Positions 35-30,119 of a stretch of DNA of 64,000 bases are shown piece after piece. Each line of letters begins with the position of its first letter. Within the stretch, counting starts at the first letter, position 1. Position numbers and translations under genes: made by a program. The notes under the pieces were generated by a model that was not told the origin of the DNA, did not search any database, and was given only the letters and a program-made list of their open reading frames with translations. This stretch comes from Candidatus Omnitrophota bacterium (GTDB lineage Bacteria; Omnitrophota; Gorgyraeia; Gygaellales; Profunditerraquicolaceae): assembly GCA_028712175.1 (NCBI GenBank), contig JAQTQQ010000003.1:7093-71092 (forward strand), given 5' to 3'.

Positions 35-226
35 ATAGTCGATAGTCAATGGATTATGGTCGATAAAAAATACGGATTAGCCTTTTAGTTCTTAGGTCTT
101 GGGTCGTAGGTCGTAGAGAAGCGTATATTGATAGCAATCGGGTTTTCCAAGACCTAAGAGCCAAGAGCTACGAGCCAAGAGCCAAAACCAAGGTTTTATT
201 AACTATAGACAATCGTCCATCGACTA
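35..226. repeat. modular palindromic intergenic element (outer AGTCGAT/GGACGAT-type arms + inner TCTTAGG/TCGTAGG 7-mer arrays), copy A upstream of fmt
   Basis: The outer-left arm atagtcgatagtcaatggattatggtcgata (35-65) is roughly the reverse complement of the outer-right arm ctatagacaatcgtccatcgacta (203-226). The inner-left array is four phased 7-mers (TCTTAGG TCTTGGG TCGTAGG TCGTAGA) at 90-117. The inner-right array is six 7-mers of the complementary type (tccaaga cctaaga gccaaga gctacga gccaaga gccaaaa) at 146-187. The centre reads gcgtatattgatagcaatcggg. Confidence 0.8.
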
Positions 227-237
227 ATAAGGAAAAC

Positions 238-1191
238 ATGAGAATAATATTCTTCGGAAGCTCGCATTTTGCCGTTCCCTGCCTGGAGGCTTTAATTAAG
301 GCCAAGCATAAGGTAGTATGTGTTGTTACCCAGCCAGATAAGAAGAAGGGCAGGCATTTGCATATTGCTTCAACCGATGTCAAGAGTACGGCGCAGGCGG
401 CACAACTAAAAATATTTCAACCTGAAAATATTAAATCCAAAGAAAGCATAAAATTCCTGAAGTGCCTGGATGCGGATATCTTTGTGATTGTTGCCTACGG
501 GCAAATATTGTCTCAGGAGGTCTTGGATATCCCAAAGATCATGCCAATTAATGTGCATGCCTCGCTTCTGCCGCGCTACAGGGGAGCAGCTCCGATTAAT
601 TGGGCTTTAATTAACGGAGATAAGAAAAGCGGGATAACGATCATCTATGTTACCCTTAAGACGGATGCCGGCCCGGTTTTTCTGCAGAAAGAAATCGAAA
701 TCGCCGATAACGACACTTCTGTAAGCTTAGAAAATAAATTGCGTTTACTCGGGGCTCAACTTTTAATACAGTCGCTTGTCAGTATTAATAACAGGGATTA
801 TCGTTTAGTCGACCAAGATGAAGAAAAAGTTGTGCTTGCCCCAAAACTAAAGAAAGAAGTTGGGTTAATTGATTGGAATGCTTCTGCCGTTGATATCTAT
901 AATCAGATAAGAGGGGTACTTCCCTGGCCCGGGGCATTTACCACTTATAACAAAAAACTCTTAAAGGTGTTTCAGGCGGAGGTCGTAAAGATTTTTCCGA
1001 ATCACAAGCCAGAGGCAGGTGAAGTGGTTAGGGCCGATAAGGGCGGTATTATTGTTTCTTGCGGCCGTGGATTCTTAAAAATTAATGAATTGCAGCTGGA
1101 GGCCGGAAAACGTATGCCTTCTAAAGATTTCGTTATCGGCCATAAACTTTGTTTGGGCCAGATTTTAGGAAAAAATAGTTGCACGATTTAG
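238..1191 (+). CDS. fmt: methionyl-tRNA formyltransferase
   Basis: 317 aa. N-terminal formyltransferase fold (IIFFGS..VVTQPDK) and C-terminal Fmt domain. Classic Fmt motifs HASLLPRYRG and NWALING are present. Confidence 0.9.
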   Translation: MRIIFFGSSHFAVPCLEALIKAKHKVVCVVTQPDKKKGRHLHIASTDVKSTAQAAQLKIFQPENIKSKESIKFLKCLDADIFVIVAYGQILSQEVLDIPKIMPINVHASLLPRYRGAAPINWALINGDKKSGITIIYVTLKTDAGPVFLQKEIEIADNDTSVSLENKLRLLGAQLLIQSLVSINNRDYRLVDQDEEKVVLAPKLKKEVGLIDWNASAVDIYNQIRGVLPWPGAFTTYNKKLLKVFQAEVVKIFPNHKPEAGEVVRADKGGIIVSCGRGFLKINELQLEAGKRMPSKDFVIGHKLCLGQILGKNSCTI

Positions 1192-1214
1192 CCCTTCTGT
1201 TATAATAATTTTCT

Positions 1215-2240
1215 ATGCCAGAATTAAGGAAAGATCCAGTTATAGGTAGGTGGGTAATTATAGCCACCGAACGCGCCCGCCGGCCTGATCAGTTTGTCGG
1301 AAAACTTAAAGATCAGGAAGATGCGGTAGCTTGCCCATTTTGCGAAGGAAGGGAAGCAGACACGCCTCCTGAAATTTATGCGATACGGCCGAATAATTCT
1401 CTGCCGAATGGCCCGGGTTGGGATTTACGTGTTGTTCCCAGCATTTCGCCTTTTTTAAGGGTGGAAGGGGATCTTGACCGCCGCGGAAACGGTATTTATG
1501 ATGTAATGAGCGGTTTGGGCGCTCACGAGGTAATAGTCGAGACCAGCCAGCATATCGCCAATATGGCGGATTTAAGCGAAGAACAAATTACCAAAGTCCT
1601 TAATTGTTATTCCGATAGAATAGTTGATTTGGAAAGAGATACGCGGCTTAAATATGTTTTGGTATTTAAAAATTACGGCCAGGGTTCAGGTAGTACAGGT
1701 ATTAAACACGCACGTTCGCAATTAATTGCTACCCCGGTTAACCCTAAGCGCGTAAAAGAAGAATTAGCCGGGGCCCGGCTTTATTATGAATATCATGAGC
1801 GCTGCGTGTTCTGTGATTTGATTCAGCAGGAATTGGCGCAAAAAGAGCGGGTAATTCTGGATTTTGATGGTTTTGTTGCGGTTAGCCCTTTTGCCGCGCG
1901 TTTTCCTTTTGAGACCTGGATTCTGCCGAAACAACATTGCTGCGATTATACCTGCATGGATGCGGAATCCAGAAGAAACCTTGCCCGCGTACTTAAAGCA
2001 GTGCTTTTAAAATTAAAAATAGGGTTAAATGATCCGGATTACAACTATGTGATTCATACAGCTCCTTTTCGCAGGCAAAAAGTAGGCTATTGGAAAACTA
2101 TTGACCATGATTATCATTGGCATATTGAGATTATGCCGCGTTTGACTAAAGTGGCGGGATTTGAATGGGGGACCGGGTTTTATATCTGCCCGCTTCCTCC
2201 GGAGGATACTGCCAAGTTCCTAAGAGAGGTTAAAATTTAA
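1215..2240 (+). CDS. GalT-like HIT-family nucleotidyltransferase (galactose-1-P uridylyltransferase / ADP-glucose phosphorylase family), paralog 1 with altered active-site motif (H-A-R instead of H-P-H)
   Basis: 341 aa with the GalT two-half-barrel signature. N-terminal Zn motif CPFCEG. The segment GIKHARSQLIATP aligns to the HPHxQ catalytic motif of paralog 2, but the nucleophile His is replaced by Arg. Confidence 0.7.
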   Translation: MPELRKDPVIGRWVIIATERARRPDQFVGKLKDQEDAVACPFCEGREADTPPEIYAIRPNNSLPNGPGWDLRVVPSISPFLRVEGDLDRRGNGIYDVMSGLGAHEVIVETSQHIANMADLSEEQITKVLNCYSDRIVDLERDTRLKYVLVFKNYGQGSGSTGIKHARSQLIATPVNPKRVKEELAGARLYYEYHERCVFCDLIQQELAQKERVILDFDGFVAVSPFAARFPFETWILPKQHCCDYTCMDAESRRNLARVLKAVLLKLKIGLNDPDYNYVIHTAPFRRQKVGYWKTIDHDYHWHIEIMPRLTKVAGFEWGTGFYICPLPPEDTAKFLREVKI

Positions 2241-3236
2241 ATGGGTGAATTGCGAAGGGATCCGGTTGTCGGCCGGTGGGTAATTGTTGATACTGAACAC
2301 CCCAGGAAACCGGCAGATTTTGAATATGAACAGTATATCCCGCAGGGAGGGTTATGCCCGTTTTGTTATGGCAATGAGTTTATGACTCCTCCTGAGATCA
2401 GTTGTTTTCGCGACCCCGGTACCGGTAAAAATACTCCGGGATGGCAGGTACGCGTGGTTGCCAACAAATTTCCCGCTTTGCAGATTGAGGGGGATCTTGA
2501 CCGGCGCGGAAACGGTATTTATGATATGTCTAATGGCGTAGGGGCGCATGAGGTTTTAATTGAAAGCCCGTATCATAATAAGGATATTCCCGAGCTCTTA
2601 CCGCAGGAAATCGAAGGGTATATAAAGATGTGTTGCCTGCGCTCCGGGGATTTAAAAAGAGACGACCGTTTTAAATATATAATGATATTTCGTAATTATG
2701 GCTCGGCTGCCGGTGCTTCTTTGGAGCATCCTCATACTCAGCTGGTTGCTTTGCCAATGGTCCCGAAGAACGCTTTAGAGCAGATTCATGGGGCGCGAGA
2801 TTATTACAATTATCGCGAGCGCTGTATATTTTGCGATATGATCCGCCAGGAGATACAGGATAAAGAAAGGATAATCTTAGAGAATACATATTTTCTTTCC
2901 TTTTGCCCTTTTGTTTCGCGGTTTCCTTTTGAGATCAGGATTATGCCTAAGCAGCATAGCGGATATTTTTGCCACATGTCAGAAGCGGAAATTCAGGCGC
3001 TTGCGCAAATTCTAAAAGATACGCTGACAAAATTAAAAAAAGTATTTGATAATTTATCATATAATTATATAATTCATTCTGCACCCGTTAACGGGGAGGC
3101 GGATATCGAGTATTATCATTGGCATATTGAGATTATGCCGAAGCTGACACAAGTTGCAGGTTTTGAGTGGGGGACCGGTTTTTACCTTGATCCAACCTCT
3201 CCTGAATTAGCCGCGCAATATCTAAAATCCGTATAA
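2241..3236 (+). CDS. galT: GalT-like HIT-family nucleotidyltransferase (UDP-glucose--hexose-1-phosphate uridylyltransferase-like), paralog 2 with canonical HPH motif
   Basis: 331 aa, collinear with paralog 1 (starts [16 protein letters not shown] vs MPELRKDPVIGRWVII). Zn motif CPFCYGNE and the canonical catalytic motif [12 protein letters not shown] are both present. The start codon is adjacent to the paralog-1 stop. Confidence 0.75.
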
Positions 3237-3271
3237 AGAGCAATAAACCTATTAACCTAAGGAGGAATCAA

Positions 3272-29579: not shown

Positions 29580-29583
29580 TAAT

Positions 29584-29660
29584 GGTCGATGGACAATAGG
29601 TATGGTCTATAAAAATTCAACGAAAGGTTCTATCGGCAATTGACTATCTTCTATCGGCTA
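29584..29660. repeat. intergenic element copy G (outer-arm type inverted pair)
   Basis: The arm ggtcgatggacaataggtatggtctataaaaa pairs with tatcggcaattgactatcttctatcggcta, which is of the same class as the 3' module of copy C. Confidence 0.6.
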
Positions 29661-29683
29661 AGATAGGGAAAGGAAATATTCAG

Positions 29684-30016
29684 GTGAAGAAGATAAGTTT
29701 TAAGTTAGGCAATTTAAAGTTTGATAAAAACGGATTGATCCCTGCGATCGTTCAGGATTATAAAAATAACCAGGTTTTAATGCTGGCGTACATGAATAAG
29801 GAGTCGTTGCGCCGGAGTTTAAAGTTAGGCAAGACTTGTTTTTGGTCGCGTTCAAGAAAAGAATATTGGGTAAAAGGTATGACCAGCGGACATTTTCAGT
29901 TTATTAAATCCCTCTCTTATGATTGTGATTTGGATACCCTATTGATTAAGGTGCGCCAAGTAGGCAAGGCTTGTCATACTGGCAATAGAAGTTGTTTTTA
30001 TCGTAAGGTTGTATAA
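29684..30016 (+). CDS. hisI: phosphoribosyl-AMP cyclohydrolase
   Basis: 110 aa. HisI motifs ([31 protein letters not shown]) are present. Confidence 0.85.
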
Positions 30017-30017
30017 T

Positions 30018-30119
30018 TAGCTCGTAGCTCTTAGCCCATGGAAAATATTAATAGCTTCGAAAGCTACTTTTAAGTATCAGAAATGGTTTCCTAAGAACTA
30101 AGACCTATGAGCTAAGAAC
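30018..30119. repeat. intergenic element copy H (inner arms only)
   Basis: The left arm is tagctcgtagctcttagccc. The centre contains the small hairpin agcttcgaaagct. After the conserved tggtttc junction comes ctaagaa ctaagac ctatgag ctaagaa c. Confidence 0.75.

Follow-up and report, generated by a model that had tools for sequence, protein, structure and literature searches.

Introduction

Intergenic heptamer repeats have been catalogued in bacteria since 1990 without a mechanism or a function being assigned to them. As summarised in later work, no long simple-sequence repeats are commoner in prokaryotes than heptamers (Mrazek 2007, via PMC4679880), and the short tandemly repeated repetitive (STRR) sequences of cyanobacteria are heptamers as well (via PMC4679880 and PMC4692102). 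In Xanthomonas, about 186 arrays of the unit GGGAATC are present per genome, with a preference for four units and 70-75 convergent inverted pairs; like the arrays of Nostoc, they lie between open reading frames (ORFs) that are aligned, up to 50 bp past stop codons or overlapping them, and are transcribed, with no function described (Rehm et al. 2015, PMC4692102). Direct repeats of TAACTGA are common to distant phyla and absent from close relatives (MacGregor 2015, PMC4679880). In this study, we analyzed a family of palindromic repeats with heptamer arms in a 64,000-nucleotide stretch of DNA from Candidatus Omnitrophota bacterium (assembly GCA_028712175.1, contig JAQTQQ010000003.1, positions 7,093 to 71,092; this whole stretch is called the window), which an original prediction made from the letters alone had described as modular intergenic elements at eight loci. 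We show that these elements are inserted, dispersed, palindromic, hairpin-forming and stable in the present population. They probably represent a non-autonomous, non-coding, primarily selfish or neutral palindromic repeat, similar to the inverted doublets (REPINs) of repetitive extragenic palindromic (REP) sequences, which incidentally forms mRNA hairpins close to stop codons.

We place the family in a class of intergenic heptanucleotide repeats with convergent inverted pairs, which includes STRR and the Xanthomonas GGGAATC arrays, because it obeys the same rules with different units that are not of the G-quadruplex (G4) type. It has in common with the Xanthomonas GGGAATC and Nostoc GGGGAYT repeats the 7-nt units, a strong preference for four of them, convergent pairs able to form stem-loops, and a position between co-directional ORFs near or overlapping the stop codon (theirs with the G-rich arm on the coding strand). 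Those repeats are neither tied to gene function nor associated with insertion sequences. In contrast with them, the units found here are unrelated and unable to form G4s, so that G4 formation does not explain the four-unit preference in the window; in addition, two module families are nested here, whole composites have been copied between loci, and the host belongs to another phylum. As far as STRR and the repeats surveyed by Mrazek are summarised in the sources above, they resemble the present family in being mostly intergenic heptamers, with several unrelated families per genome, a sporadic distribution and length steps of 7 nt; unlike STRR, usually presented there as simple direct arrays, the elements described here are palindromes of fixed polarity with a conserved A-tract/T-tract junction next to the loop. 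The TAACTGA repeats of Beggiatoaceae, cyanobacteria and Bacteroidetes are also stop-bearing intergenic heptamers of distant phyla that are missing from relatives with the same gene neighbourhood, but they are direct, lie just upstream of start codons and include one inverted case among 170 sets, whereas the window elements are inverted pairs anchored at the upstream stop codon. The family matches no Rfam family (see below), but it is not without precedent, since the heptamer arrays of Xanthomonas and Nostoc (PMC4692102) and the cyanobacterial STRR had already been described. A literature search by sequence strings returned no relevant paper.

Results

Architecture and distribution of the repeat family

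All eight predicted intergenic loci were verified in the first 30 kb of the window, and each holds a whole or partial copy of a palindromic repeat with heptamer arms (elements A to H, whose coordinates are given with their parts below). Two related arm modules, outer and inner, occur across these loci. The outer module, about 33 nt long, consists of four non-identical 7-mers in a conserved order followed by an A-run (consensus TAGTCGATGGACnATAGnCnATAGTCGATAAAAA); it is present in ten copies and in both orientations, with four units in 8 of the 10 arms. The inner module has 3-8 units and reads (TAGSTCK)n-TAGAAAACC, or GGTTTYC-(MGASCTA)n in its mirror form. Unit identity was position-specific across the 10 outer arms and also across the 9 inner arms, and both modules keep the same phase, reading (TRG-N4)n-TARAAAA, which can be generalised to (TRG-N4)3-4 followed by TA(A/G)AAAA(CC). 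Modules were found alone, as a hairpin with an inverted copy, or as an inner hairpin nested in an outer one; five loci, together with the second part of element C, are hairpins.

The repeat signal was well separated from background. A sliding test of self-similarity detected 11 period-7 segments in the window, compared with 0-5 for the other periods from 4 to 12 and 0-1 in base shuffles; ten of them fell in six of the reported loci, and the eleventh (20972-21014, AAGAAAA-type) is unrelated to the family. Tandem Repeats Finder reported period 7 at seven of the eight loci, the exception being G, whose outer arms are evident from inspection of the units. Matches to degenerate tandem-heptamer patterns for three unit classes were confined to the reported loci. 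The right-arm junction pattern GGTTTYCYAAGANCTAAGASC had 4 matches, all on the + strand, and a 28-nt outer-arm pattern had 6, with 0 expected in each case. Finally, nhmmer arm profiles (E<0.001) recovered 9 outer and 10 inner arms, every one inside the eight loci, and had no match in 31-64 kb of the window. Because the profiles of both arm types were empty there, the downstream 34 kb are free of elements at profile sensitivity, as originally predicted.

Several details of the prediction needed revision. First, not every unit contains TAG or TAA: many, such as GGTCGAT, GGACGAT, CCAAGAG and TGGGTCG, have no stop, and the outer-left array of D has none at all. Stops in all three + frames do occur when whole elements are considered (at least one stop in each frame). 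Second, the array given as seven copies of GCTCGTA at 9799-9848 is present, but its count is 6.4 copies at 92% identity, or 8 if degenerate units are included. Third, the GGTTT(T)C junction is simply the GAAAACC of the left arm's loop end in inverted form.

Insertion into operon-internal junctions

All elements lie between co-directional genes, and every flanking gene is on the + strand. The junctions are priA|fmt, MFS|marC, NTP-transferase|GNAT, acyl-CoA dehydrogenase|etfB, pilin-like|smc, hisD|hisB, hisF|hisI and hisI|trpE, in agreement with all the flanking-gene names given in the prediction. At each of the eight loci the element starts 0-12 nt past the upstream stop codon or overlaps it, the stop being the first unit's own TAG in C and probably likewise in D. 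From the end of the element to the next start codon there are 11-377 nt, and the ribosome-binding site is retained.

We compared these junctions with eight relatives (L030-L032, L153-L155, L159 and L160) that share the gene order at 73-79% nucleotide identity. The hisD-hisB gap, which holds element F, is 120 nt in the window and 12, 8 and 16 nt in relatives; the hisF-hisI gap (element G) is 104 nt, compared with a 4-nt overlap in four genomes or 57 nt; and the hisI-trpE gap (element H) is 120 nt, compared with an overlap or 3-10 nt. Similarly, the gap between the acyl-CoA dehydrogenase gene and etfB (element D) is 191 nt in the window versus 4 nt, 2 nt or an overlap, and that between the NTP-transferase and GNAT genes (element C) is about 164 nt versus 48 nt, 38 nt or an overlap. 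The MFS-marC gap (element B) measures 139 nt in the window, 9 nt in L153, where the site is empty, and 155 nt in L155, where it holds a different, terminator-like palindrome. No period-7 arrays of this kind were found in the eight relatives, in 5-21 kb of each. The positions of the hisD, hisF and hisI stop codons match those in the relatives, or nearly so, which shows that the extra DNA was inserted right after the native stop. Since the same junctions are only 0-57 nt long or overlapping in relatives, C, D, F, G and H are clearly lineage-specific insertions into operon-internal junctions; with B, which L153 lacks, the lineage-specific insertions number at least six. The original placement at operon boundaries was therefore not upheld, as the tight or overlapping junctions of the relatives lie inside operons.

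The insertions are stable in the present population. Identical proteins are encoded by the Candidatus Omnitrophota metagenome-assembled genome (MAG) GCA_028718085.1 and by several independent assemblies, and five assemblies, at 99.6% identity or more, carry the elements without a change in unit number or an indel, element A being identical in 4 other assemblies. One of the five is a strain at 99.63% identity over 8.3 kb, whose elements are likewise free of indels; in strain L026, element G differs by two substitutions, which are not a compensatory pair, and by no indel. Thus, the arrays are not hypervariable on the strain scale, as they are unchanged across five assemblies. An assembly artefact could be rejected, given that the elements are identical in independent assemblies.

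Relatives carry unrelated palindromes of their own in slots of a comparable kind. Two sites of L155 contain TAGGGACAGCGACC...GGTCGCTGTCCCTA, and the palindromic repeat TAGGGACAGCGACCATTTT...AAAATGGTCGCTGTCCCTA lies right past stop codons at L155:7489-7643 and L155:13143-13390; in one case the L155 palindrome occupies the MFS-marC slot, that of element B in the window. Another palindromic repeat, GGGGACGGTTCT...AGAACCGTCCCC, follows a stop codon directly at L154:4306-4426. In the nearest HisF relatives (L159:1361-1482 and L160:1098-1220), hisA is separated from a PG-binding gene by a 122-nt insertion, compared with 14 nt in the window; this insertion forms a long hairpin (GCACTAAACTTACG...CGTAAGTTTAGTGC, about -40 kcal/mol) and represents another lineage-specific palindrome, at a junction other than those above.

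Folding and transcription signals

Folding supported the description of the family as modular, imperfectly palindromic elements that form long hairpins. Compared with dinucleotide shuffles, element A had an RNA minimum free energy (MFE) of -62.4 kcal/mol (z -5.25; z -3.6 as DNA), which corroborates the predicted nested outer/inner hairpin of this copy, and element D had an MFE of -56.7 kcal/mol (z -5.92). Element H reached -29.7 kcal/mol (z -4.4), and B, G and H each fold as a single hairpin. The half-elements E (z -1.3) and F (z -0.4) showed no significant self-fold. Arm pairing was imperfect, with 157 Watson-Crick pairs, 20 G-U pairs, 10 A-C mismatches and 33 other mismatches (71% Watson-Crick, 80% including G-U).

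No terminator-like motif overlaps any element; the right arms run into mixed sequence without a U-tract. An identity as intrinsic terminators, one of the roles originally proposed, was rejected accordingly, as the elements have no such signature (a GC-rich stem with a U-tract behind it). Promoter-like matches that touch an element were limited to two weak ones (9 of 12) at the right ends of A and D, and their -10 hexamers overlap the downstream start codon. An Rfam search of the whole window at the gathering threshold returned just 2 tRNAs, and a search of the first 31 kb and eight related loci with E up to 5 gave no match to the window elements. Besides tRNAs, it gave only sub-threshold miRNA-like hairpin matches at related loci and an Acido-Lenti-1 RNA (RF01687, 56.9 bits), which adjoins a tRNA in an Acidobacteriaceae locus (L023:4075-4120) and is unrelated to the repeats.

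Related arrays in other organisms

The original prediction had called for copies to be counted over the whole genome; related elements do exist in many other organisms, where they were found by cross-phylum searches with patterns taken from this window. The inner-junction pattern was found at 19 loci in species-representative genomes, about three of which look like chance matches. Fourteen of the 19 belong to Acidobacteriaceae, Terriglobia or Thermoanaerobaculia MAGs, and 13 of these 14 have the full architecture (YAGGTSU)n-GGAAAA-loop-GGTTTCC-(TAAGACC)n; another Omnitrophota MAG (L021) carries a perfect (TAAGAGC)x11. The Acidobacteriaceae elements lie between co-directional genes, for example a Zn-ribbon gene and fabH, PP2C and a membrane protein gene, or hemC and hemD, often with the stop TAG as first unit. 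Between orthologous loci of Acidobacteriaceae, the arrays differ by complete units (4 versus 9, for instance). Moreover, in two independent cases, L011 as compared with L005/L010 and L019 as compared with L014, the loop with its asymmetric GGAAAA/GGTTTCC junction is exactly inverted relative to conserved flanks. This implies that recombination or template switching may have taken place between the heptamer arms, and the hairpins could behave as small invertible segments. Of the features of an inverton, a loop in both orientations is thus seen between Acidobacteriaceae genomes. All window assemblies have a single orientation; no promoter-like site was found in the loops of the window elements, and no recombinase gene was seen in the DNA inspected, which covers 74 kb of the source genome (the window and 10 kb upstream).

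In metagenomes, the outer pattern was found at no fewer than 120 loci with a GC content of 0.32-0.70, many of them with inverted pairs. Among the matches listed, there were at least 241 period-7 arrays, compared with 1-75 for other periods, and at least 92 distinct heptamers, with two or more families in 53 of the 120 loci listed. Polarity was fixed among the matches listed, the G/T-rich array forming the 5' arm and its complement the 3' arm on either strand (16:1 for outer-type and 14:0 for inner-type pairs, 30:1 together). Stop-codon adjacency (18/82 versus 2/82 of the metagenome loci listed) is a confounded measure, since whichever frame enters TAG-bearing units ends there; among those arrays listed that are free of stops, there was no such effect (1/21 versus 2/21). 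Several unrelated heptamer families also occur close together, as at L010:2429-2468, L020:5939-6041, L018:5435-5522 and in many of L033-L152 (for example, CTGAGAA, GAGGTCA/TGACCTC and TAGCTCT pairs). The fact that genomes with one heptamer family usually hold several unrelated ones nearby suggests a genome-wide propensity for 7-nt arrays instead of one sequence-specific factor.

Another reading of the repeats is a platform whose partner would be an oligomeric protein that binds RNA or DNA in a 7-nt register and competes with the hairpin. Such a protein could be HutP-like, UAG-N4-UAG-N4-UAG being the spacing format of the Bacillus HutP site. The left arms of the window elements do read (UAG/UGG-N4)3-8, with UAG at 7-nt steps in C, in the inner arm of A and in H, and both the fixed arm polarity and the presence of the same arm in two phyla would fit such a platform. 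However, many units are UGG rather than UAG (UGG takes its place in D and G), array-bearing genomes hold many unrelated heptamers (the kinds counted above among the matches listed), other members of the class (GGGAATC, CCCCAGT) have no UAG, and no candidate gene was found in the 74 kb inspected. We consider a binding platform extremely improbable.

A BLAST search of copy A against plasmids and phages gave nothing on phages and, on plasmids, just (GCCAAGA)4(GCCAAAA)9, an unrelated array of Cupriavidus pMOL30. This array, on the Cupriavidus metallidurans megaplasmid pMOL30 (L158; NC_007971.2, about 142490-142590), is unannotated and intergenic; it has the unit CCAAGAG in common with the inner-right arm of the window elements and has no inverted partner.

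Dispersal between loci and mobility

Where elements A and D align, namely in the two outer arms, at the junctions and in the inner-right arm, they share 78% column identity, with one 29-nt gap that corresponds to the inner-left arm lacking in D. The loops of A and B have GTATATTG in common, and the same four non-identical outer units recur in the same order at nine sites. These similarities would not be expected from independent slippage, and they indicate that whole modules or composites were copied between loci, so that local slippage is not the only process.

We also considered purely local growth of simple sequence, in which 7-nt slippage is seeded at the stop region and the arms are copied on the hairpin as template, with no movement between loci. 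It would accord with heptamers as the dominant period of long simple-sequence repeats, both among the matches listed and in the literature (PMC4679880), with the existence of long perfect arrays (eleven units in L021 and many metagenome loci), with the 7-nt steps by which orthologous loci differ, and with a stop codon that is often inside the first unit (C and D; L005, L010 and L014). However, it does not account for the same ordered composite, non-repetitive junctions included, in A and D, for the loop sequence common to A and B, or for the conserved order of outer units, and the unit number is constant in the five assemblies. Local growth as the whole explanation is therefore quite improbable.

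With regard to mobility, we set the filled sites of C, D, F, G and H against the empty ones of relatives and found no consistent target-site duplication; element D has just a weak CTATWAAA on both sides. The idea of a mobile palindrome resembling a miniature inverted-repeat transposable element (MITE) thus stood with respect to dispersal, given the empty sites in relatives and the homology of A and D, but not with respect to target-site duplications. Like Correia and Nezha elements, the window elements are small (70-190 nt), non-coding, palindromic and present or absent between related genomes; unlike these MITEs, they have no target-site duplication and no known related insertion sequence, and arms of variable unit number take the place of fixed terminal inverted repeats. 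A classical MITE was rejected on these grounds. A CRISPR array was also rejected, as originally stated, as the 7-nt units are arranged head to tail without spacers.

The resemblance to REP sequences, bacterial interspersed mosaic elements (BIMEs) and REPINs (Bertels and Rainey 2011, PMC3116915; Di Nocera 2013, PMC3733652) is closer. They too are extragenic modules of about 30 nt that occur singly or as inverted doublets forming a larger hairpin, without target-site duplication, in lineage-specific families and with possible effects as stop-proximal mRNA hairpins. The original prediction had therein suggested mobilisation by a REP-associated tyrosine transposase (RAYT), a Y1 transposase of the HUH type. 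The fixed arm polarity would agree with this, and the two tetranucleotide tags of REP superfamilies, GTAG and CGTC (Di Nocera 2013, PMC3733652), occur in window copies, in inner units (TCGTAGC) and outer-right units (ATCGTCC), respectively. On the other hand, a REP is a tagged palindrome linked to a RAYT, whereas a single window module is a tandem heptamer array that is not self-complementary; the tetranucleotides are present in some units and not at a defined end, and both are absent from the Acidobacteriaceae versions (TAGGTCT). No transposase, RAYT or Y1-transposase gene was found in the window or the 10 kb upstream (beyond the downstream end there was just more of the ribosomal cluster), and no recurrent transposase next to 139 array-bearing loci listed, where the recurring gene families were only ubiquitous ones (histidine kinase, ABC-F) and orthologous carB loci. 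Mobilisation by a RAYT is thus very doubtful.

Structure and flanks of the individual elements

Element A (35-226) is the full nested composite, with an outer hairpin around inner arms: outer-left 36-70, inner-left 88-120, a loop at about 121-140 with GTATATTG, inner-right 141-185 entered through GGTTTTC (141-147), and outer-right 191-226. Upstream it borders directly on the stop codon of priA (32-34); downstream, 11 nt separate its end from the fmt ATG (238). Element D (11661-11825) is a composite homologous to A without the inner-left arm; it consists of outer-left 11662-11697, inner-right 11737-11772 with its GGTTTTC entry at 11738-11744, and outer-right 11789-11824, between the acyl-CoA dehydrogenase gene (stop 11650-11652) and etfB (ATG 11844). 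No strand was assigned to these two elements or to the hairpins B, C part 2, G and H.

Two elements are inner-type hairpins. Element B (7847-7925) contains no outer module and has its left arm at 7851-7891, the loop sequence GTATATTG at 7888-7895, GGTTTCC at 7900-7906 and a right arm extending to 7922; it begins 4-7 nt past the stop of the MFS/BT1 gene (7843) and lies upstream of a promoter-like site (7945-7973) for marC. Element H (30017-30121) has a left arm at 30017-30046, a 38-nt loop, GGTTTCC at 30085-30091 and a right arm to 30119; it starts 1 nt past the hisI stop (30014-30016), with the trpE ATG at 30137. Element G (29583-29660) is an outer-type hairpin (left arm 29583-29617, right arm 29625-29660) between hisF (stop 29577-29579) and hisI (GTG 29684).

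Element C has two parts. The first (9797-9855, + strand) is an inner-left array of 8 units without a right-arm partner: TAGCTCG three times, TAGCTAG, TAGCTCG, TAGCTAG, TAGTTTG and TAGAAAA, ending in GTAGAAAACC (9845-9854). The NTP-transferase gene (8576-9799) has its stop codon in the first TAG of this array. The second part (9875-9937) is a short outer-type hairpin with one left unit GCCGATAAAGA, an AT-rich loop, and then GGTTTTATCGGC together with an outer-right module of 3 units (9907-9937). For the GNAT, the mechanical ORF starts with TTG at 9928, within element C; relatives (149 aa) place the real start at ATG 9964, and with that start the element does not overlap coding sequence.

The remaining two elements, both on the + strand, have no right arms. 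Element E (14252-14287) is a lone outer-left module of 4 units and TAAAAA, located 1-2 nt past the stop of the pilin-like gene (14249) and upstream of smc. Element F (26290-26380) begins immediately behind the hisD stop (26287-26289) and combines a degenerate inner-left arm (26290-26326), which ends in GTAGAAAACC, with one outer-left module (26347-26380); hisB then starts with ATG at 26410. Downstream of E there is a terminator-like hairpin at 14301-14335 (GGGGCGCC...GGCGTCC followed by T7), and perfect TTGACA-17-TATAAT promoter-like sites are located at 14409-14437 upstream of smc and at 20871-20899 upstream of recA. Elsewhere in the window, the rplL-rpoB spacer contains an AT-rich 30-nt tandem repeat (42457-42522, 2.2 copies, 10-nt sub-period ATAAGTAAGT) that is unrelated to the heptamer family.

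Discussion

Our preferred interpretation is a primarily selfish or neutral REPIN-like repeat. It was inserted into compact or overlapping co-directional junctions, 0-12 nt past the upstream stop, and would persist only where the reading frame stays intact and the ribosome-binding site is not parted from its start codon. Copying of whole composites accounts for at least part of its spread, and arm length would change in 7-nt steps via replication slippage. The two arms may further act on each other at the DNA level, through recombination or through template switching over the hairpin, which would keep them similar and occasionally flip the loop, thereby explaining the loop inversions. Co-transcribed with the operon, an element would give a stable hairpin right past the stop codon, which could protect the upstream cistron from 3' exonucleases and uncouple translation of neighbouring cistrons. 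It possibly also stalls terminating ribosomes, by analogy with E. coli REPs located within 15 nt of the stop, which stall ribosomes and lower translation (PMC12306157).

Several observations weigh against this interpretation. First, the sense-strand RNA fold is more stable than the antisense fold in 5 of 6 hairpins, and G-U exceed A-C mismatches by 20:10, which is not significant (p about 0.1) and would fit some selection at the RNA level. Second, elements are adjacent to stop codons even where there was room elsewhere, as in the 413-nt spacer of E and the 139-nt spacer of B, which hints at targeting or function over pure tolerance. Third, a near-identical arm and junction occur in both Omnitrophota and Acidobacteriota, for which a purely neutral model has no explanation. 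Fourth, the copies are fairly diverged, as seen for A and D, so that the activity may be ancient. Finally, the 74 kb inspected, a limited part of the source genome, revealed no enzyme for mobilisation, no target-site duplication and no donor copy.

The first two of these points would agree with a different view, in which the elements are selected RNA cis-elements, that is, intercistronic or 3'-end stem-loops that, within the polycistronic mRNA, make the upstream cistron more stable, attenuate read-through, or tune the output of the upstream gene by stalling the terminating ribosome. The stop-proximal position of all eight elements and the E. coli precedent for stop-proximal REPs (PMC12306157) would fit this view; furthermore, B occupies the exact slot of the terminator-like palindrome of L155, upstream of a conserved promoter, and the element is kept at orthologous junctions across Acidobacteriaceae species. 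Nevertheless, the same junctions have no element in the eight relatives, where genes are tightly or translationally coupled, and the elements are therefore dispensable. In addition, C part 1, E and F are half-elements unable to form a hairpin, the loop flips its orientation relative to the transcribed strand between orthologues, the junction motif of L008/L023 is antisense to hemC-hemD, the G-U excess is not significant and there is no U-tract. Selection for an RNA function thus seems unlikely to be the primary explanation, and we favor the selfish or neutral repeat, with the mRNA hairpins as an incidental product.

Our results have several implications. The heptamer class extends to uncultured phyla, including Omnitrophota, Acidobacteriota and many metagenome lineages, and the fact that four-unit preference, convergent polarity and stop anchoring hold for non-G4 units removes the sole explanation offered so far. 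The syntenic relatives provide clean empty sites, which show that elements were inserted into the operons of a compact genome; the composite copies show dispersal between loci, and the flipped loops point to arms interacting as DNA. In practical terms, elements of this type break assemblies and may be misread as regulatory RNAs, and they are natural markers for strain and lineage tracking in Omnitrophota. A bolder and rather unlikely idea, prompted by the fixed polarity, the stop-codon placement and the near-identical arm in Omnitrophota and Acidobacteriota, is that these elements form a distinct cross-phylum class of "heptamer-armed REPINs", copied in trans by an enzyme that reads the single-stranded hairpin, or else that an oligomeric RNA-binding protein reads the arm in a 7-nt register and melts the hairpin. 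If true, this would provide a mechanism for heptamer repeats, which have been unexplained since their description in cyanobacteria.

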